DNA of 64,000 nucleotides from Octopus vulgaris (taxonomy: Eukaryota). Made by a program: the position numbers and the translations under genes. The notes beneath the pieces are model-generated. The model saw only the letters and a list, made by a program, of their open reading frames with translations. It was not told the origin of the DNA and did no database searches. Location of the stretch: the NCBI GenBank assembly GCA_951406725.2, contig OX597836.1, forward strand, positions 24,552,001 through 24,616,000, in the 5' to 3' direction. This document shows positions 2,931 to 57,076 of the stretch, in pieces; within the stretch, counting starts at the first letter, position 1; each line of letters opens with the position of its first letter.

Positions 2931-3131
2931 TATTCTTCTAGCCATTGCTCATCGTCTCTTTTTAACCAAATCCAGTGGCTAACCTTTTCCACTGTAGTTT
3001 GGATATCGGTCATGGTGGTATTTAACTGATAAGAAACACGATGAAAGAGCTACATACATCAAAAACATTAATGTATGTCAACACACACACACACACACAT
3101 AATTTCAATCTGTATCTTTGTTTCTTCACAG

Positions 3132-3307
3132 ATGTTGACAGCCAGCGCCTGGAATTTGCCAAAAAGGTAGGGGCTGACCATGTTCTCTCTGTGAGAGCAG
3201 GTACTTCCAAAGAACTTGCTTCTCAGATTGAGAACCTCTTGGGGAAAAGTCCTGATATTTCACTTGAATGCAGTGGGAACCCTGCTGGTTTAAAAACATC
3301 TATTTTG
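3132..3307 (+). CDS. SORD: Sorbitol dehydrogenase exon DVDSQRLEFAKKVGAD...LECSGNPAGLKTSIL
   Basis: cacag acceptor, gtagg donor, 176 nt, frame consistent with neighbours. Confidence 0.95.
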
Positions 3308-3946
3308 GTAGGTTACTATACTTCCCTCTCCCTCTCTCTCATTCATATATATATGTGTGTGTAATATATATATTCACTTTATCTCCTTTTCTTTTCTTCA
3401 ATAATATTTGCTTTATTTTTCTGACTGTATCCTCCATTCTGTGTCTCTCTTTTTATCATTTTTTTTCTGACATAATGAATCTAGGACTACATTATCTAAT
3501 ATGTACTTTACTTTATTTGAAGTTAAGGTGTTACTTGAGGGTGATTTGTCTGCTATTTCTAGTAAGTCAAGTCTCAAGTGATTCAAGAGAGAGCACCTTT
3601 GCCTTCCAATTTCAAACCAGCCACTGACAAACTCTCTAAAGATTCATCAAAATGCTTGAAGTGTCATTACTAAAACAATAAATTAATACAAATTATAAAT
3701 AAATAATTTTTTTTTTTCTCAGCAGAGACATCAATGCCACAAGTTGTGATGTTTTTGCCAATTTGTCCCTAATGCTAATGAGGTTCTTTGTTCTTAATGT
3801 AAATTCTCTCTTGATGCAAAATAGTAAAAATGTTCATAATATTTATCAGATGATCTTGACTGATTGATCAGAATTCTTTCAATCCATGGTTTGCTTTTTA
3901 AATATTGATCTGTGGACGTCCGTCTTTTATTGTTGTTTCTTGCCAG

Positions 3947-4068
3947 GCAACAGCCAGTGGCGGATGTGTTGTCATGGTTGGCATGCAACCTGATGAAGTT
4001 ACAGTTCCTTTGTTGAATGCTGCAGTCCGTGAAGTAGACATAAGGGGCATTTTCAGATATGCAAACTG
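3947..4068 (+). CDS. SORD: Sorbitol dehydrogenase exon ATASGGCVVMVGMQPDEVTVPLLNAAVREVDIRGIFRYAN(C)
   Basis: tgccag acceptor, gtaag donor; REVDIRGIFRY is characteristic of SORD. Confidence 0.96.
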
Positions 4069-4392
4069 GTAAGTATTGGCACTGCTGAAGAGGAAAGGCA
4101 AATGAAAGAATGATGGTTTATAGAGAGGGAGGAAAGAGAGTGTGATGTATCTGAGGAATTTGAGAAGTGCTTTTAGCAAATAATCTTCTGTCAGAAGGTA
4201 TTTAGTTAAAATATGTAGAACTATAACATGAGAGTTTCCCTGAGGACCAGATCTAGAATGACAGACAATATAGCTTCCAGTATTTCTTTATTGTCCCTGT
4301 ATGTTCTGAGTTGAGATCAAGTCCTCTTGCTGTTGACTTCACCTTTTATCTTCCCAGGATTGACAAAATAAATATCACTCATATATTAAACT

Positions 4393-4691
4393 GGAGGCGC
4401 AATGGCCCAGTGGTTAGGCAGCGGACTCGTGGTCGGAGGATCGCGGTTTTGATTCCCAGACCAGGCCTTGTGAGTGTTTATTGAGCGAAAACACCTAAAG
4501 CTCCATGAGGCTCCGGCAGGGGATGGTGGCGATCCCTGCTGTACTCTTTCGCCACACCTTTCTCTCACTCTTTCTTCTGTTGGCCTGCTCGCTTAGCCAG
4601 CGGGGTGGCGTCATTTGAAGGCTAAAACAATGCAAAGCGCATTGTGACCAACGATGTGTAGAAACATCTGATAGTCTGGTCGGTCACGGTG
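4393..4691 (+). mobile_element. tRNA-derived SINE (OR-like head), tail type 1
   Basis: A box TGGCCCAGTGG, degenerate B box; TSD ATATTAAACT; diverged relative on - at ~19140-19378. Confidence 0.85.
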
Positions 4692-5108
4692 ATATTAAAC
4701 TAAATATCATTTCTTGTCTTCTTCTCCACCATTTGTGATCTTATGTCTATATTAGAACTTCTAATTCAAAGTTATCAGTGGTATGATGTTACAGAAGCAG
4801 TAAAACACCAAACCAAATACCTTGAGATGTGAAAGTTACCTTCTGAGTTCAAATCCTGCTAGAGTAAACTTTGTACTTTATCTTCCTGGGTTTCTAATAT
4901 ATGACTGGAATCATTAAAATCAACTCCTCCATAAATTATGTCCTTTTAAATTATGGTTTCAAATCCCACCAAGGTTCACTTTACGTTCCATCCTTCTGGG
5001 TTCTACCTGTCTAATACCAGTGTCAATAATAATCACCTGTATAATTAAATGTGTGACTTTCTCCTTTTATTAAACATTGTTGTTATTGCAGCCGTAACAT
5101 TGATCGTC

Positions 5109-5545
5109 TAATAATAATAATGAAATCATTGTATACAGTGCTCAGGTGCACCACAACTTGTCAGAAAGTGCGTATAAAGTTTATGCAGTAATGTACAAAT
5201 GTCTGGAAAGCGAACAATGTATGAGTCAGATACATGCTTGTGTGTGTATGGAGGGGAGAAAATCAGGTGTAGTGTTGGCGAACCTCAGAAAGCATGGAGG
5301 TTTTGAAGGATGCAGTGCTCCGACAGCTAACAACTGATGCTGGCAGTTTGTTCCATGCTTCAGCAACTCTCAGCATGAAAAAAATGTTTCCTAAAGTCAT
5401 GGGAGCTGTGCTGTTTTCTGACTTTGAAAATATGTCCACGGGTGTTAGACGGGTGGAGTTTGAAAAAATGCTCAAGAGTTATTGTTCGTAAGATGGTTGA
5501 TAATTTTATGGGTGTCTGCCAAGTCAGCTGCCAGACGTTGGAGTT
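5109..5545 (-). mobile_element. CR1-clade LINE 3' end (same family as 2553-2930; further pieces at 19441-19648 and, on +, 22437-22693)
   Basis: Near-identical sequence; LRVAEAWNKLPASVV. Confidence 0.8.
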
Positions 5546-5587
5546 TCAATGTGTCTTTTTAAACAGACTTTTTTTCTTTTTTTGCAG

Positions 5588-5741
5588 TTACCCAATTGCC
5601 TTGTCAATGATAGCTTCTGGCCAAGTGAATGTCAAACCTTTAATTACACATAGATACAAACTGGAAGAGAGTCAGAAAGCTTTTGAACATGCTCGCACTA
5701 TGAAAGATGGTGCAGTGAAGATTATGATTAAATGCAGTTAG
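5588..5741 (+). CDS. SORD: Sorbitol dehydrogenase last coding exon YPIALSMIASGQVNVKPLITHRYKLEESQKAFEHARTMKDGAVKIMIKCS*
   Basis: Polypyrimidine tract + cag acceptor; VKPLITHR and KIMIKC C-terminal motifs; TAG stop. Confidence 0.96.
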
Positions 5742-14571: not shown

Positions 14572-16906
14572 ACATCATCATCATCATCATCATTTAGCGT
14601 CCGTTTTCCATGCTAGCATGGGTTGGATGGTTCAACTGGGGTCTGTGAAGCCAGAAGGCTGCATCAGGCCCAGTCTGATCTGGCAGTGTTTCTACGGCTG
14701 GATGCCCTTCCTAACGCCAACCACTCCGCGAGGGTAGTGGGTGCTTTTTATGTGCCACCCGTACAGGTGCCAGACGGAGCTGGCAAACGGCCACGAATGG
14801 ATGGTGCTTTTACGTGCCACCGGCACGGGGGCCAGGCGAGGCTGGCAATGGACACGAACGGATGGTGCTTTTACATGCCACCGGCACGGAGGCCAGTTGG
14901 GCCAGCGCTGGCAACGGCCATGAACGGATGGTGCTTTTTACGTGCCACCGGCACAGGGGCCAGTCAAGGCTGGCAACGGCCACGAACGGATGGTGCTTTT
15001 ACGTGCCACCGGCACGGAGGCCAGTCAGGGTGGCGCTGGCAACGGCCACAATCGGATGGTTCGCTTACTTGTCACCGGCACTGGTATCACAGCCGCAATT
15101 TCCATTGATGTTGATCAACTTCGATTTTGGTTCTGCTTTCTGATATCTGATTGATTTTGATTTTCACTTGCCTCAATGGGTCTTCATAAGTGGAGTTTTG
15201 TGTCCCAAGAAGGAAAGGTATGTATAAGTCGACTGGCTACATACCAGGTAGAGGTCACGGGTTATGGTCTCACCAGTCTTGCTGGGTCTTCTCACGCACA
15301 GCATACTTCCATAGGTCTCGGTCTCTAGTCATTTCCTTGGTGAGACCTAAAGTTCGAAGGTCATGCTTCACCACCTCATCCCAAGTTTTCCTGGGTCTAC
15401 CTCTTCCACAGGTTCCCTCAACTGCTAGGGTGTGACACTTTTGCACACAACTATCTTCGGCCATTCTCGTCACATGACCATACCAGCGCAAACGTCTCTC
15501 TTGCACACCACAACTGATGCTTCTTAGGTCCAACTTTTCTCTCAAGGTACTTACACTCTGTCGATTATGAACACTGACATTACACATCCATCGGAGCATA
15601 CTGGCTTCATTTCTTGCGAGCTTACGCATATCCTCAGCCGTCACGGCCCATGTTTCACTACCATGTAGCATGGCTGTACGTACACATGCATCATACAGTC
15701 TGCCTTTTACTCTGAGCGAGAGGCCTTTTGTCACCAGCAGGGGTAAGAGCTCTCTAAACTTTGCCCAGGCTATTCTTACTCTAGCAGTTACACTTTCAGC
15801 ACACCCACCCCCGCTACTGACTTGGTCACCTAGGTAGCGGAAGCTATCAACTACTTCTAGTTTGTCTCCCTGGAACATGGTAGAAGTTGGTCTCTGCACA
15901 TTTCCAGTGTTTATTGCTCCTGAGCATCTGCCACAGACAAAAACTATTTTCCTAGTTAGCCTTCCTTTGACATTGCTGCACCTCTTATGTGTCCATAGCT
16001 TACGCTTGGTGCACCTTATAGAGTTTCTACCTACACCTTTTTTACAGATCGAGCAGGGCCATCTACCTGAAGTCGTTTGTGATTGGTCTACCTTCCTACT
16101 TATTAGGACTTTGGTTTTGGCTAGGTTGATTCTAAGGCCCTTCGATTCTAATCCTTGTTTCCACACCTGAAACTTCTCCTCCAGTTCTGATAGTGACTCA
16201 GCAATTAGAGCAAGGTCATCAGCATAGAGGAGCTCCCAGGGGCATCCTGTCTTGAATTCCTCCGTTATTGCCTGGAGGACTATGATAAATAGGAGGGGAC
16301 TGAGGACTGAACCTTGGTGGACCCCAACCTCTACCCGGAATTCTTCACTGTACTCGTTGCCAACCCTCACCTTACTAGCAGCGTCTCTGTACATGGCTTG
16401 CACAGCTCTCACTAACCATTCATCTATCCCTAGTTTCCTCATTAACCACCAGATAAGGGATCAGGGGTCCCTGTCAAAGGCTTTCTCCATGTCAACAAAA
16501 GCCAGGTACAGGGGCTTATCTTTGGCTAGGTATTTCTCCTGCAGCTGTCTTACCAGGAATATAGCATCAGCAGTACTTTTCCCTGGCACGAACCCAAACT
16601 GCATCTCATCTAAGCTAACTCTCTCTCTAATTAATTGGGCTATAACCCTCTCCATAACCTTCATTACCTGATCCAGCAGCTTGATACTCCTGTAGTTATT
16701 TGTATCTAGGGCATCACCTTTACCTTTGTAGCAGTTGACTATTATGCTGCTACACCAGTCATTGGGTATGACTCCTTCGTGTATCACCTGGTTAACTATA
16801 TGGGTGACTAGGCTATAGCCGACACTACCAGATATTTTGAGCATCTCTGCAGTAATTCCTGATGGGCCTGGGGCTTTCCCTGTTTTCATGCTTGTAATTG
16901 CCTTAC
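14572..16906 (-). mobile_element. 5'-truncated RTE-clade LINE: RT (KAPGPSG, QFGF, AFD, QGSVLSP, YADD), C-terminal GRGRPRKTW, long 3'UTR with tandem ~62-66-bp units, (GAT)n tail
   Basis: ORFs 16461-16940 and 15270-16442 are in the same frame, separated by one TGA (likely CGA>TGA); lies in a WDR41 intron. Confidence 0.95.
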
Positions 16907-17088
16907 TTAAGGAAATTTCAGTGATTAAATGAAATACCATTTTTAAAAAAATGCAAAACTAGAATATAAATAAGACATTACAAATGAAAAGTATTGACTA
17001 TCTTAACGAAGCATATTCTCAGACAAAACAATTAATTAATCTAAGAAACTAGTACAAAATGAAAGTTAATCAATACGTCAATACTCAC

Positions 17089-27651: not shown

Positions 27652-27886
27652 CTGAAGAGATATAAAATGGTTTTGTTAGAAAAGAAGTCTTTCCTTGTTG
27701 CTGGGTTGCAAGGGAATCGTATTGGTTGTTTTAAAACAGGTTTGTTGTAGCTTATGATTATTGGTCAGAAATACTGAGCAGAGTCTATATGTATGTGTTA
27801 GAGAGAGAGGAGTGTGTGTCTGTGTGCATTGTGTATGTGTGTGTATGTGCATGCATGATGAAAGAGGAAATAAAAATGGAGCAAAC

Positions 27887-27999
27887 CTTCTGTTGTCAAG
27901 TCGCAGAAGTTTGCGGACAATATCTTTGTGATCTTCAAGTAAATGTATTTCTGTATATAAATTGTAAGGCTGGCCATGATCCAAAGTGTCTGGTTTTTC
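27887..27999 (-). CDS. WDR41: WDR41 exon EKPDTLDHGQPYNLYTEIHLLEDHKDIVRKLLRLDNR(R)
   Basis: Resembles WDR41 N-terminus (NPYTELLVLKAHHDIVRFLVQLDDYR as recalled for human); AG/GT sites. Confidence 0.92.
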
Positions 28000-28694
28000 C
28001 TGACAAAAAAGAAAAAAGAAATTTAGATGTAACAGTCAGCACCACCATGAACAATTTCTTCATTTTCTTCATTATTATCAATGCCACCACTGTTATTAAC
28101 TTCTTCCTCCACCTCATCACCTTTCTAATAATCTATTCATTAAAAAATTTTTAGACCAAATCTCATCATTATATTCCAAATATCAAGGATATTGCAGTTG
28201 TTGTACATCATAGATGACAGCTTTTAATTAATCTAATTAATAGGCAGACCTTCACTCAAAAACAGTGTACAATGATGCACTGTAAGTGCACCTTCCACCA
28301 CCACCACTACTATCACTGTTCCAGTTGCACATTGAATTGACAGCGATTTAAGTCACTCTTCCACATCCACTTTTCCATCTTCCATCTCCAGCTTTTGACA
28401 TTCCAAACCCTTGCTAAACATTTCCTCTAATCCTTTCTTCTTAACATTGCAATTTTCTAAAACAAACTGTCACAAACACACTTGGCTTTGCTGGCCAAAT
28501 TGGAGCATATAAAAGTTTATTTGTAAGACAGGCCAAACTAAATGGATCAATGGGACAAACACACGCACACACACATGCATGCAAATATGCATGTATTGTT
28601 ATATATATATATATAATTGCAACGTGGAAGGTGTTTGTAAGCCATTTAAGAAACACACAAAAGCCGTTCGATTCACTTCAACATTTAAGTTTAA

Positions 28695-28744
28695 TTTATC
28701 AAAATATTTTCATCGCTAAAATCCGCGACCTGTTCACTGACAAA
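28695..28744 (-). ncRNA. Type-I hammerhead-like motif with G3-C8 variant core (GUGAACA)
   Basis: UUUGUCA-GUGAACA-G-GUCGC[GGAUUUUA]GCGAU-GAA-AAUAUU-U-UGAUAAA: stems I and II and palindromic stem III in hammerhead order. Confidence 0.55.
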
Positions 28745-28753
28745 AATCCGTGC

Positions 28754-28799
28754 TCAGTGAACAGGTCGCGGATTTTAGCGACGAAAATATTTTGACAAA
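28754..28799 (+). ncRNA. Second (inverted) copy of the G3-C8 hammerhead-like motif
   Basis: UCA-GUGAACA-G-GUCGC..GCGAC-GAA-AAUAUU-U-UGAC; stem I shortened to 3 bp at the palindrome centre. Confidence 0.5.
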
Positions 28800-29539
28800 T
28801 TAAACTTAAATGTTGAAGTGAATCTAACGGTTTTGTGTGTTTCTTAAATGGCTTATAAACACCTTCCATGCTGCAATTGTTTTCGTTTCAGCACACGATC
28901 TCAGATCAAATCACTTGCTATGCGAGTACATCTCCGTAATATATATATATATATATATACAGTGTGCATTTAAACACATAAGAGGTATCCGTCATAGGAT
29001 TCCTTGCACGCTAGAAGGAACAGCTAAAATCCAAACCACTATAGGGATAAACTTCGAAGGGAATGAAAAATAAAAACATTTACCATCTATCTCCTGGACC
29101 ATGGTTTCAGACTTTTTTTAGCAAATAAAATAATTTGCTGGGCGAAGTCTTTATAATTTTTCAAAATTATAATGTATAAGCTTTACCCAACTCAGTTGAG
29201 TCTTGCAAGTACCGGGTGACCTCACCACTGCTGGAGCCATGTAAAAAAAACACCCAGTATGTTCTGTCAAGGGTCATCTGTTCTAATCAAACTCCCGAAC
29301 CCATGCTGGCAGGGGAATAAATTATATACTTATATATATTGTACAAGGTTTGACTCTGGATTTCACTTACGTACATTTTAAAAACAAAACTTTATAGATC
29401 TTAACTTGGATGACTGAAACACACTGAAGAACATACACACACATATGATTAATTAGTAAAACCTCAGTGTGCGTGTGTGTGTGTGAATTTGTTTCCATTT
29501 ACCTTATTACTCAACCTTAAATATTTGTGTTTAACTCAC

Positions 29540-29569
29540 TTGTTCAGGTGAATCATCTGCGTTTCTCAT
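29540..29569 (-). CDS. WDR41: Probable first coding segment of WDR41 (MRNADDSPEQ); exon likely starts at acceptor 29601
   Basis: ATG plus 9 codons then GTGAGT donor in phase 0, matching the next exon; upstream tttaatttcag acceptor; no homology support for the peptide. Confidence 0.6.
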
Positions 29570-31599
29570 GTTCTTCTGTGTGAATGCAAAAGCAACTGGT
29601 TCTGAAATTAAAGAAATTACTTCTATAAAAACCATTTCTTATTTTTGCCTAGGAACAAGACCAAGAATTTTGAATAAGCCTGTGATATACAGGGTAAAAA
29701 GTCAGGTAAGCGTAGCAGGATTTGATCTCATAATTTTGAGAACTGAAGCAAAATATTAAACGTCAGTAAGTTCAGCTGCAGGGAAAATTGATAACGAAGC
29801 AATGATCCATTCCTTTTTCTTTTAATCTTAATTATAGAATTGGACCATTTTCAGTTTTGGAATTTAAATTTTCTCTTCTATAAGTTTGTGTATATGGGAG
29901 CGTTTTAATTCTGTGAATAAAAGAAAATATTCCTTCTAGATTTACACATTTTTGTCAATTTATTCAATAGGAATATTGATCTTTAAAAAAATTATGAAAA
30001 TCATAGATTTGTTGCAAATTTTCCACCATTTGAATCTTATTCTGGATGTGCAAAATCAACTGACATGTAATAAAAGTGAGAGGCTGCTGGGGCATTTAAA
30101 GATTAGCTGAGGTGTTGATGTGAGACTGCTTTACTCCTAGATGGATATGTGATGTGTATGGAAAGGAACACTGGAATCTGTTGATATTTTGATAAACAAC
30201 CATTTATTCTTTTTGTACACACACACACACAAAAAATGATAGTTGTTATTACTAACAACAAAAGGTTTTTGTTCTTGGTGCAGTTGTAACAGCTGATAAA
30301 CTGTGGTTAGTTGCTTGCTGGCAACCGACTTCTAATGTTGTGCATCCTCCAGCTGGTCATTGTCTTTATGTTGTCAGCTGCTATCCATCATCTCTGTTGG
30401 TCAACTCGTACAGCGTCTGTCAATGCTCTCTCTGCTGTATCCCAAAGCTTTCTGTCTAGTAGTCACAACATACTGAATTTATACTGGTTGATAGGCTCAG
30501 AAGGAATCACTGCTGGAGCCTATTTGATGCAAAGTCATGATTAATTAGATTTTGTTAGTCATGTAAGCAATATTCAAGCGAATCGTGATATTGGATGAGA
30601 ACAAATGATTTGTATTTGGGTGGATGATGATGATATCAAATGATACCTGGAGGAGGAAGACCAAGACAAATAGGACCCAAGATTAGCAAATTTGCTGGAG
30701 TGTTGAATAAAATCATTGTGGTATTTAGTTTTCGTTCTCCAACTACAGAGTTTATACAACGTTGGCATAAACTTTCATTCTTCAGGGAGGAGAGAGAGTG
30801 ATAAAATAAAGTGTGAATCAAGCAGTAAGGTAGATTTAATATTTCTATAATTGCTCAAGATATAAATAAATGGAATTATAATAAAAAACTAAACAGTGCA
30901 AAGATGAGAGATAAAGTCAGAGGTAAAAGAGATTTACACTCAGAAACTAGAGACACAGAAATAAATACTAAAATACATTTAGTTGTGTTTGTCCATCCTT
31001 GACCACCCTAACTACGTAATGTCCAGCGGAAGTACTTTCTCCTTCCATTCTAAACATTTGTACCAAACCCGAATCCAAATAGATTTCTGAACCTTTTATT
31101 TCAACTTTATATTATCCCCTTTGAGGTGTCAATACCCTTAGAATCAGTGATTACTTATCTAAAGACCAAGACAGGACTATAGTTTCAATTGAACCCAATT
31201 TACTTCACCTTCATCACTAATTTCTTTAAAAGCTGTGTCTCATTTCTCCTCTAAATTTAATGTGTCCTTTCTTTGACAAAGGGTTCGTCTGCTGTTTCTA
31301 GCTGGTCAACTAGTTTAAAATATGGGTCATTTCTATCCAGTTTAAAATCTAGGGCTTTCAGAGATTGATAAAATAGTAGTTAAATATGAAGAAAAAAAAG
31401 TATAATCGATTGAACTTTTAATAGCAATTCTCAAACATGGCCCAAGGACACACTGAAACCCAAAATAAAAAAAAATGTTTGAACAAATAAGGGAGAGAAC
31501 TCTTGATGACCGTTTATAATTTATTCTTCGGTTAAGTTGGACATGCAAGAATAAGGAAACTAAACGAGACACCAGAACAAACTGACAATTTTTGGTTTT

Positions 31600-32950: not shown

Positions 32951-33547
32951 GTTGTTGCAGTTTAGTCATTATTGAATAGATCTATGGTGAAAGACATTCC
33001 ACTCGTAGCCATCCTGTATCTTCGTGTTCGGCGTCAGACACCGGGATAAACGATTATGTTCTTCCTTTGACAAAGATTCGTCTGCTATTTCTGGCTGGCT
33101 AGGCTAAGCGGCGGTTTAGATTAGTCATGAGCAATCAGCGACCCGTGGGACTTTCTGCATTCAGTTGGAGGAACAGAGTGGAGTAAGTGGAGCAAGGACA
33201 CGCACGAAAACGAAAAGTGCCGCTGAAGAGGTCACACAGATGTGTGACGAACGATTTCCAATGGACATCAGTTAAAATTTAATAAGTAAGAACAGTAATA
33301 AATGAGTGAAGAACAAATATATAATGCGTGTGTTTATTCAACGAAAAAAAAAACAAACAATATAGGCAGACAGGAGTGGCTGTGTGGTAAGTAGCTTGCT
33401 TAGCAACCACATGGTGCCGGGTTCAGTGCCATTTGGGTAATGTTTTCTACTATAACATCGGGCCGACCAAACCTTTGTAAGTGGATCTGGTAGACGGAAA
33501 CTGAAAGAAGCCCATCGTATATATATATATACACGTATATATATATA

Positions 33548-38160: not shown

Positions 38161-39528
<1,368 letters not shown>

Positions 39529-45934: not shown

Positions 45935-46370
45935 TGCCCTGATGCAGTACCAGACAGTGGCTCTCATGGCTTCTGATCTTAACTGATTGGAAGTGTTATC
46001 ATGTACATTGTTTTGTTTTGGTATAAAAGATAGGCTACAGCAAATATTCTGTTCAATACAACAGATTTGCTAGTCAGTTGTTTGACCTTAACCAGTAGGA
46101 AGTTAAGCAGTTGTGGTCACTGAAAAAGGTGGTAGTAGCATCAATAATTATCGGAGTCCTGAGAACAGTGAGAAAAAATCTTGAGAAGTACATGGAACAA
46201 ATAAGGGCTGCAATAAAGGTGGAGCGTCTGCAGAAAACAGCACTGCTTGGGACTGCTTGAATACTCCGGATGGTGCTGGAAAAATAAGGGGTGTAAACTT
46301 AGTTCACTGGTAGTGAACAGCTGACACCGTAGTACATCACCAGCGTTAGAAGCTGTGCAAAGACAACAAC

Positions 46371-46460
<90 letters not shown>

Positions 46461-46884
46461 TATAATAAAGGCTAACAGACCAGATATAGTTGTCAGAGAT
46501 CATGAAGGAAAAAAATGCTTTCTAATTGATGTATCAATACCGGCAGATGACAACGTGTCTCTAAAAGAAATGGAGAAACTTTCAAAATACAAAGACCTGG
46601 AAATAGAGGTAACCAGAATGTGGAACCTAAAAACAGAAACAATTCCTATCATAGTGGGTGCATTAGGCATGATAAAAAAATATTCAGACAAATACATAAC
46701 AAAAACACCAGGACTTACAAACACATATAACATACAGAAAATTGCACTACTAGGCACTGCACACATCTTACGCAGAACACTTTCCATACAATAACCATCA
46801 GAGCATCACAACAAATCACAGCACATACCCAAGGCACACAGAGCTGCGCTCGGTAGTGAAGTGAAAGCACGCTATAAAAATAAA

Positions 46885-46959
<75 letters not shown>

Positions 46960-47385
46960 GGCTAACAGACCAGATATAGTTGTCAGAGATCATGAAGAAA
47001 AAAAATGCTTTCTAATTGATGTATTAATACCGGCAGATGACAACGTGTCTCTAAAAGAAATGGAGAAACTTTCAATATACAAAGACCTGGAAATAGAGGT
47101 AACCAGAATGTGGAACCTAAAAACAGAAACAATTCCTATCATTGTAGGTGCATTAGGCATGATGAAAAAATATTCAGACAAATACATAACAAAAACACCA
47201 GGACTTACAAACACATATAACATACAGAAAATTGCACTACTAGGCACTGCACACATCCTACGCAGAACACTTTCCATACAATAACCATCAGAGCATCACA
47301 ACAAATCACAGCACATACCTAAGGCACACAGAGCTGCGCTCGGTAGTGAAGTGAAAGCACGCTATAAAAATAAAACTACTGAATG

Positions 47386-55399: not shown

Positions 55400-56420
55400 C
55401 AAAATAAAAAAACAACACTTAACTGCAATTTTAAATAATTTGATTTCAAAATTACAATAAATTCGAACTCGAAAATAGTAAATTTTCTAGATGTAATATT
55501 GAATCTAAACACAATTAAATGCTCCACCTTTTGTAAGCGGAAGTGATAAAGTACATAATAGAGACTCCAACCACGATAAAAAAAAAGCACACTGCATTAC
55601 AGATAAGACTAAGGCACGTATATCTAATCTAACTTAAGAGCTATTTAATTAAGGTAATCTATGCTGCATTAGAGCATTAGTTAAATATAACTTTAACGAG
55701 AAGCTAAAATAAATAACCCAACCGATATCAAATAGCGTTAGTATAAAATATAAAAAATACTTTAGCTTAATCTTTCTTACAGATTAAATGTAGCCACAAA
55801 TATAGTAAGAACTTTCATAACAATAACATGCTCTTCTTCACTTATATACACACGAAATTTTCTAGAAAGTTAATCTACATCTTTATATGCCATATTTGAT
55901 AAAGCATCTCTAATCTACTTCGTTTTTGTAGTTGGTTTTGCAAGATTCTTGAAGTGAATTCGTGTATTGAGACAAATCTTATTGTGTCTTGGGGGGGTCA
56001 TTACACCAATAATAATAATAATACAAATAAACACACGCACTGGTTCAATATACCCTCTTTATTTTACTAGCTAACTATTCAATGTGCAATAAACACATCA
56101 AACGAACCACTAAATAAAATAAAGATGTGGGATTGAACCAGTGCGTGTGATTATTTAAATTTCGGTTAGCATAATGATTCTTCACAATCACAACAGCATT
56201 TCTGATCACATTCCTAAAATCCAAACAACCGAACTTGAATGTGATTGATGGAAATATCTGTTGAAAGAAAACAGACGACATAGTAAAGACGTATAGCGGG
56301 TTAACAGAGAACACTTTTAAGACTAAATACAAACAACACACCAATTCGCTCAGAATTAAGAGTAAGAGAAATGCTATGTCACTTTCTATGCACGTTTGTG
56401 TTTTTTCAAACACAAACGGG
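55400..56420 (+). mobile_element. Degenerate Penelope-like element
   Basis: FKITINSNSKIVNFLDVILNLNT (PLE RT end) near 55445-55510 and TYSGLTENTFKTKYKQHTNSLR..SLSMHV (GIY-YIG) near 56290-56400. Confidence 0.75.
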
Positions 56421-57076
56421 AAGCAAGTCCACAATAAAATAGAGTATTGTTGCCGAAGGCATAACGCCACCGTCATTTACTCAAGAAACTCAAGATCCCG
56501 ACTCAGTCCTTCGATACAACTGGCGCCAAATTTGACACTACATCTGTTCCAGTGTTGTGTATACCAATGATCCACGGACATGTGTTAGTTCGTAAGGTGC
56601 CAGCCACTAGCGTTCAGAAGATAGGCGGCAAAATACATTTTATCAAAGGCATTAGTAAATCTTGATTTCACACGGTGAATATTTACATGTTCACAAATAC
56701 ATGTATCCCTTCACTGGTTATTATATTTTATATTTCTTTATCGAATATTAAAAACTAGATTACCAGAACACGTTATTGGTCAACCAGCTTATATAACTTG
56801 AATTCTATTCCACTGTGTTGTGCATTTGGTTCTATATTGTTCCATTTCATCTGTTAGTAATTGATATCATAATAATTGAAAATGTAACCGATGATAGCTT
56901 GTTTTTTTTTATCTAGATGTAGAAGAGAAAATTTATTAAACCAAATTTAATGAAATCAAAGCGACAAAATTATATTTCACTAAATGTTTTGCTGAAAAAT
57001 AAAAACTTAGATTAGATTGGATTGGACCGCATCAAGTAGTTTCAAAAACACGCGCGCATACGTACGCATGCACACA

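Follow-up and report, generated by a model that had tools for sequence, protein, structure and literature searches.

The palindrome in an intron of the octopus WDR41 gene is, in our judgement quite probably, a dead insertion in which two pLTR copies of a Penelope-like retroelement (PLE) lie head to head, each with a G3-C8 hammerhead that is likely to support weak, protein-aided self-cleavage in the element's RNA and that we predict to be inactive in the intron. The G3-C8 form is a real, family-wide variant of the PLE hammerhead, and its natural occurrence is an evolutionary confirmation of the tertiary 3-8 pair, in an orientation known so far from mutants in the literature that we surveyed.

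A PLE end insertion of the usual kind in a WDR41 intron

The original prediction described inverted arms of ~126 bp around a 13-nt spacer between (TA)n tracts, and both the coordinates and the computed fold bore this out. Positions 28615-28740 and 28754-28878 of the window (the whole stretch of 64,000 nucleotides that was analysed) are inverted arms of 126 and 125 nt that differ at 6 places, including one gap, and are separated by 13 nt; (TA)n flanks the palindrome at both ends, and the hairpin of the arms has a computed folding energy of -197.5 kcal/mol (z -28). The palindrome covers only 28615-28878, as 28879-28939 is a one-sided tail of ~60 nt, and the 13-nt "spacer" (28741-28753) is additional 5' leader of the minus-strand pLTR copy. 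A 25-mer core, GTGAACAGGTCGCGGATTTTAGCGA, matches the window twice, at 28757 on the plus strand and 28737 on the minus strand, where shuffled sequences are expected to give no match. Three of the six arm differences fall on sites that are dimorphic in the family. The features of the locus are as follows.

27880..27990, minus strand: host WDR41 exon downstream of the insertion, approximate limits (PDB 6lt0_A match, E 0.00059)
28600..28614, no strand: (TA)n target, left (window sequence)
28615..28753, minus strand: inverted 5'-truncated pLTR copy, tail-less, starting ~52 nt upstream of the predicted cut; sense in WDR41 pre-mRNA
28694..28745, minus strand: putative minimal type I hammerhead, copy 1 (fold; sister-family model 32.1 bits, E 1.2e-7)
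28749..28800, plus strand: putative minimal hammerhead, copy 2 (fold; sister-family model 32.5 bits, E 8.6e-8)
28754..28939, plus strand: direct 5'-truncated pLTR copy with tail, the PLE 3' end (comparison of genome copies)
28848..28939, plus strand: PLE ORF ATG and first 30 codons (in-frame run into the RT-EN ORF in tandem copies L293/L137)
28879..28939, plus strand: one-sided PLE tail of ~60 nt (two 3'-end classes among copies)
28940..28959, no strand: (TA)n target, right (window sequence)

The insertion follows the usual inverted-plus-direct pLTR pattern of an autonomous PLE that is present in thousands of copies. The motif is therefore not tied to WDR41, and the locus is an ordinary PLE end insertion. 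A minus-strand exon matched WDR41 (E 6e-4), in agreement with the claim that one motif copy is sense in the WDR41 pre-mRNA; the upstream exon, at ~29541-29600, was placed by splice signals alone. Along the minus-strand transcript the antisense arm precedes the sense motif, which is completely paired in the computed fold; there the closing pair of stem II has a probability of ~1e-20, so that the proposed masking of the sense motif by the long hairpin was upheld. The hammerhead fold is thus predicted from modelling to be buried and inactive in the intron. It is very improbable that this copy has a function of its own in WDR41, be it ribozyme activity or regulation through an ADAR/Dicer hairpin. 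Although a near-perfect duplex of 126 bp would form in the pre-mRNA, with one copy in sense, the insertion is one among thousands of recent ones with 92-97% identity (we counted 37 palindromic pairs among 100 sampled matches plus the window copy), earlier transcription of the antisense arm leaves the fold buried, and the sense copy has lost C11.1. ADAR editing or dicing of the intronic duplex is plausible as a modelled outcome, yet incidental editing would not amount to a function.

Structure of the parent element

A genome search with the feature returned 2471 first-look candidates, the best 40 of these 2471 at 92-100% identity, and a 25-mer around the ATG had 9787 exact genome matches, counted as arms and not as insertions. 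Among the copies the right end is constant and the left end varies, solo arms occur, and the 3' ends fall into two classes, tailed and untailed. Duplications of 11-13 bp flank 5/30 copies as scored by eye, namely those outside (TA)n; the TSD of the window copy is unreadable because (TA)n flanks it. Long copies run from the pLTR end through a ~1.2-kb 3' UTR into the RT/GIY-YIG ORF, an open frame of 1025 aa with YVDD and a C-terminal Pfam GIY-YIG match (25.4 bits, cutoff 22.6); Pfam gave no RT match in this ORF, and the RT was assigned from motifs and homolog names. Partial pLTR tandems supply the ORF start (L293/L137, L292 and L302), and since in tandem copies the reading frame continues from the tail into the RT-EN ORF, the pLTR provides the ATG (28848) and 30 codons. 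Another candidate tandem pair, L091, was rejected as a host duplication. All the features of a PLE were found: a C-terminal EN, a pLTR tandem, an inverted 5'-truncated copy, an optional tail, a short TSD and a microsatellite bias.

The long inverted repeats, their TA context and the lack of any Rfam hammerhead match could instead be read as a foldback or MITE-type DNA transposon whose motif is a chance look-alike. We give this reading practically no credence and rejected it on the continuity with the RT-EN ORF and on the model matches described below; the copies are fixed at one end and vary at the other, occur also as solo arms, show duplications of 11-13 bp, and lack the symmetric fixed termini and fixed short TSD of such transposons. 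The Rfam blank is uninformative, because five sister loci with C3-G8 or U3-A8 likewise give no Rfam match.

The PLE insertion shares its head-to-head inverted 5'-truncated copy, optional tail, first codons in the pLTR, short TSDs and (TA)n bias with the inverted-pLTR Penelope insertions described by Arkhipova et al. 2013 (PMC3846280) and Craig et al. 2021 (PMC8557442). It differs from the elements in the available text of those papers in a tail of ~60 nt, against 30-40, and in an RT motif A-to-B spacing of 134 aa. This spacing was ~129-134 aa in the 110 measurable of the 120 homologs listed, and the value of 134 aa (L126 2971-6045, minus strand; L129 942-4877, plus strand) was common to homologs that include Holothuria (230 matches). 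The RT has a long insertion, and the short CxxxCxxC linker looks, by eye, like the Nematis rows. We dropped an early label "Neptune-like" and assign no clade; judged by sequence features, a PLE with 134-aa spacing, a C-terminal EN and a short linker is possibly an unnamed PLE lineage with an insertion at the IFD position. The sister ORF (L129 942-4877), of 1312 aa, has a long Asn-rich insert like one described in rotifer Penelope elements (PMC3846280). One palindromic insertion was present with identical flanks in six places (L195, L262, L263, L267, L268 and L273) and was probably carried there by another repeat.

Anatomy of the G3-C8 hammerhead

The predicted motif anatomy was found in each arm, with copy-specific lesions in both. 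On the minus strand, copy 1 has stem I UUUGUCA/UGAUAAA, G3 at 28737, C8 at 28732, stem II GUCGC/GCGAU and stem III AAUAUU, with the predicted cut between 28702 and 28701; in this WDR41-sense copy C11.1 is changed to U at 28712, which leaves a G10.1-U11.1 wobble, and stem I contains a G-U pair. Copy 2, on the plus strand, has G3 at 28757, C8 at 28762, A9 at 28763, the extra G at 28764, stem II at 28765-69/28778-82, GAAA at 28783-86, stem III at 28786-91, U17 at 28792 and a predicted cut at 28792/28793, and because it is 5'-truncated its stem I is cut back to 3 bp (UCA/UGA). The core nucleotides U4 G5 A6, A9, G12 A13 A14, A15.1-U16.1 and H17 are present, and positions 3 and 8, C and G in the CUGANGA consensus, are G and C. 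The family motif has stems I and II, G10.1-C11.1, an extra nucleotide after position 9 and a palindromic stem III. It lies in the pLTR, 56 nt before the ORF ATG, and is the sole hammerhead-model match per pLTR. The computed probability that stems I and II form within pLTR RNA is 0.93-1.0; isolated motifs fold unremarkably (z -0.65 to -2.5). As had been expected, CUGANGA motif scans miss it, giving 0 matches over the element, and neither CUGANGA nor model scans found a second, canonical hammerhead in three long copies.

Several of these traits are ordinary for PLE hammerheads. According to Cervera and de la Pena 2014, the minimal hammerheads of PLEs have an extra nucleotide, G10.1-C11.1 and a palindromic 15.2-16.2, are low in activity, and include a U3-A8 covariant in Cercyon. 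The octopus motif shares with them its pLTR location, the extra nucleotide between 9 and 10.1, G10.1-C11.1, a tiny palindromic stem III, the common U17 and the occurrence of opposite-strand motif pairs. The original prediction singled out an extra G after A9, an AU-only stem III and a UUU site that it called atypical, but an extra nucleotide, UUU and an AU-only stem III all recur among the 56 published PLE representatives (Fig. S3 of that paper), which also include U17; what is uncommon is the identity of the extra base, G here against a consensus H. At the 3-8 pair those 56 representatives have 53 C3-G8, 2 U3-A8, 1 U3-G8 and 0 G3-C8.

Sister families and covariation of the 3-8 pair

The interpretation of the motif as a natural G3-C8 covariant of the Penelope-type minimal hammerhead was supported by sister families and by models, and on this comparative evidence the motif is very probably homologous to PLE hammerheads. 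The G3-C8 pattern had 7251 genome matches (control 47), C3-G8 in the same frame 5829 (control 152), and A/U-only 3-8 combinations 312 against a control of 424, without excess; the hammerhead class with the highest count in this genome is one that CUGANGA descriptors overlook. Seven U3-A8 copies, four of which were chosen from the match list by eye, and one U-U copy had homologous PLE flanks, with ORF remnants upstream in one. At the corresponding position, a sister family that was identified purely by protein similarity (51% identity) has C3-G8 together with the extra G, stem II GUCACA/UGUGAC, GAAA, G15.2-C16.2, U17, stem I and a C at position 9, and L147 is a near-twin with C3-G8 and the same stem I, stem II 5' strand and U17. 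The commonest C3-G8 sister family (L128-L130, L141-L170) has C9, copies with A9 being a minority, which indicates that core quality is loosely kept.

We aligned 17 rows, which were hand-picked and are related rather than independent, and from which the mismatched rows L021, L148 (G-G) and L207 (U-G) were excluded. Paired cells made up 89.7% of the alignment, against 24-47% in slid controls, and double changes numbered 21, against 7.4 in shuffled alignments (0/500), part of this covariation being built in by searches that preset TGA, GTC, GACGAAA and, for most C-G rows, C3 and G8. Partly through the same search design, a Watson-Crick 3-8 pair occurred in 16/17 rows, with three pair types. Pairs free of search constraint were 15.2-16.2 (G-C 9, A-U 3, G-U 3, other 2), stem II pairs 4-5 and stem I. 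The expected covariation was therefore found between related families, in stems II and III and in the 3-8 pair. A covariance model from 13 rows without G3-C8 found both arms at E ~1e-7 in the 64-kb window (a rough E) and a single motif in each pLTR of full elements, and gave no match on L131. A metagenome scan for the G3-C8 pattern gave 31 matches, 0 with stem I/III support on inspection, which we took as chance. Within the window, 33215-33276 (plus strand) is a decayed sister PLE pLTR with a canonical core (CUGAAGA; 39 bits with model R1).

Retention and decay of the 3-8 pair

Among family copies the motif is conserved, as the original prediction required, with G3 in 82/85 arms and C8 in 83/89, and G3-C8 stayed constant while loop II changed across three subfamilies. 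No C3-G8 copy with the family's own flanks occurred among the first 100 of 158 listed, and position 3 decays neutrally. Non-C8 copies numbered 336. Family members made up 96 of the first 100 in the list, and by hand count they have G (38), U (43) or A (15) at position 8. The G3-G8 copies are in ~two-fold excess over the background of C to G changes (38/96 against 12/67, background 12:33:22; p 0.003). They are scattered across older subfamilies (including L299, L303, L314-L333 and L364-L383), and a single ancestral G3-G8 subfamily was rejected, as they spread over loop types without shared diagnostic sites. Two of them (L299 and L303) run into the ORF, suggesting that a broken core may not block mobilization.

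These data bear on the somewhat unlikely reading that a motif of hammerhead origin has lost catalysis or become dispensable, its fold being kept for protein binding or as a promoter and G3-C8 having been fixed by two near-neutral steps via G3-G8. The G3-G8 excess over several subfamilies and the C9 of the large sister family are what such a history would leave. However, related families have C-G, U-A and G-C states with no excess of A/U-only combinations, and the youngest subfamily has no G8 among the 100 matches listed. We hold it on balance probable that the G3-C8 motif retains residual cleavage in the RNA of the parent element.

Insertion 5' ends and the template RNA

We determined 5' ends in the first 100 matches listed for a pattern located downstream of the cut; removal of 5 that duplicated one insertion left 95. 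Relative to the predicted cut, ends fell at -65 to -54 in 40/95, beyond -65 in 10/95, at -53 to -36 in 20/95, at -35 to -6 in 9/95 and past the cut in 13/95; only 3/95 were within 5 nt of the cut and none at the cut itself. This lack of 5' ends at the cut site would fit a dead motif. A canonical-core sister family, in which 2/50 starts were within 5 nt of the cut and 15 at -95 to -70, is also without cut-site starts, so that the missing footprint does not single out the G3-C8 form as dead.

Among junctions that stop at A(-59), pooled from several searches, those unexplained by the inverted arm (30/52) were preceded by G in 19, C in 6 (templated), T in 4 and A in 1. The untemplated base was thus G in 19/24, and in 14/19 after 5 doubtful rows were dropped by eye (p 1e-5 against 0.25). 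Copying of a cap appears as an extra G, as seen in work on LINEs. Because starts lie upstream of the cut, often after an untemplated G and rarely near the cut, the templates were likely capped, uncut RNA, and the junction sequences suggest that the element's transcript is likely capped and starts ~59 nt upstream of the cut. The sequence upstream of this putative start also fits a 3' splice site, which offers a second explanation besides a cap; a spliced first exon ending in CTGAG was rejected, as four long copies held no matching donor.

The loop II class matches between the arms in 39/43 palindromes. In a minority, the arms belong to different subfamilies (L025 and L197 by the strict pattern; L244, L247 and L381 by eye). 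To turn one such arm into the other takes several changes, one of them an indel, so that a pair of RNAs (or later conversion) is their likely source. By analogy, mixed-subfamily arms fit a dimeric protein that extends both strands (PMC11167929). Together with the matched natural variants, the upstream 5' ends, the extra G and the mixed-subfamily arms bear on the PLE transposition cycle.

Comparison with other hammerheads and proposed mechanism

No report of a natural G3-C8 core was found in the hammerhead literature surveyed, as far as the available texts go; this also included PMC6765202, PMC2377424 and bioRxiv 10.64898/2026.07.22.740005, and the alignments of Lunse et al. 2017, which were outside the survey, may contain such rows. 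Perreault et al. 2011 (PMC3088659) treat the 3-8 pair as a feature of the catalytic fold, and natural 3-8 covariation is shared with their examples, but in the available text those are U3-A8 only. For PAc Poseidon, Frangieh et al. 2024 (PMC11167929) report that cleavage requires protein and that a PLE hammerhead given the C3G/G8C swap by engineering cleaves again in part, with protein assistance. In their work the main substrate is RNA that has not been cut, insertion in vitro has no need for cleavage, and a dimeric protein extends both DNA strands. PAc Poseidon and the octopus element share a hammerhead beside the ORF start and a tail from two internal RT starts. Whereas the ATG of PAc Poseidon is inside the ribozyme, that of the octopus element is 56 nt downstream of the cut; uncut RNA as template is shown for the former and suggested by 5' ends for the latter; and the swap, a partly active laboratory mutant in the former, is the natural state of >7000 matches in the latter. 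Insertion without need for cleavage, and the low activity of PLE minimal hammerheads (Cervera and de la Pena 2014), would suit a dead or dispensable motif, but the place of the 3-8 pair in the catalytic fold (PMC3088659) argues against such a reading.

In the mechanism that we propose, the hammerhead lies in the 5' leader ahead of the ATG, as seen in the layout, downstream of a putative capped start ~59 nt upstream of the cut. The RT-EN protein would nick AT-rich DNA, and internal priming at two sites in the first codons would give the tailed and untailed ends that we observed, both steps being modelled on PMC11167929. Copying of both strands, sometimes from two different RNAs, would produce the palindrome, and integration would proceed from uncut RNA, as the 5' ends suggest. 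Cleavage, probably as a dimer or with the help of protein, would strip the cap and leader, and by removing them would likely limit or terminate use of the RNA rather than make the template.

A more far-reaching version of this mechanism is speculative, and we consider it doubtful. A PLE lineage within a single genome would have sampled three Watson-Crick 3-8 states even though its copies come from capped, uncut RNA, and the ribozyme would therefore have been selected as a brake: two RNAs in one RT-EN complex would base-pair through their stem III palindromes and remove cap and leader by cleavage, with mixed-subfamily palindromes as the footprint. If so, the G3-C8, G3-G8, C9, C3-G8 and U3-A8 families would form a natural allelic series for PLE hammerhead function.

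Other features in the window

The frame at 56265-56570 (plus strand) is degenerate, has no Pfam match and resembles the GIY-YIG endonuclease of another PLE type, presumably Naiad-like. We take an intronic stretch at 15270-16958 (minus strand) to be an RTE/LINE-type reverse transcriptase remnant and 38422-39072 (plus strand) to be a Tc1/mariner-like transposase fragment. Two tandem 3' ends at 46333-46794 and 46865-47284 (plus strand), adjoining trinucleotide repeats, are presumably those of an RLE-type non-LTR element, and 3026-5741 (plus strand) presumably holds exons of a sorbitol-dehydrogenase-like gene.
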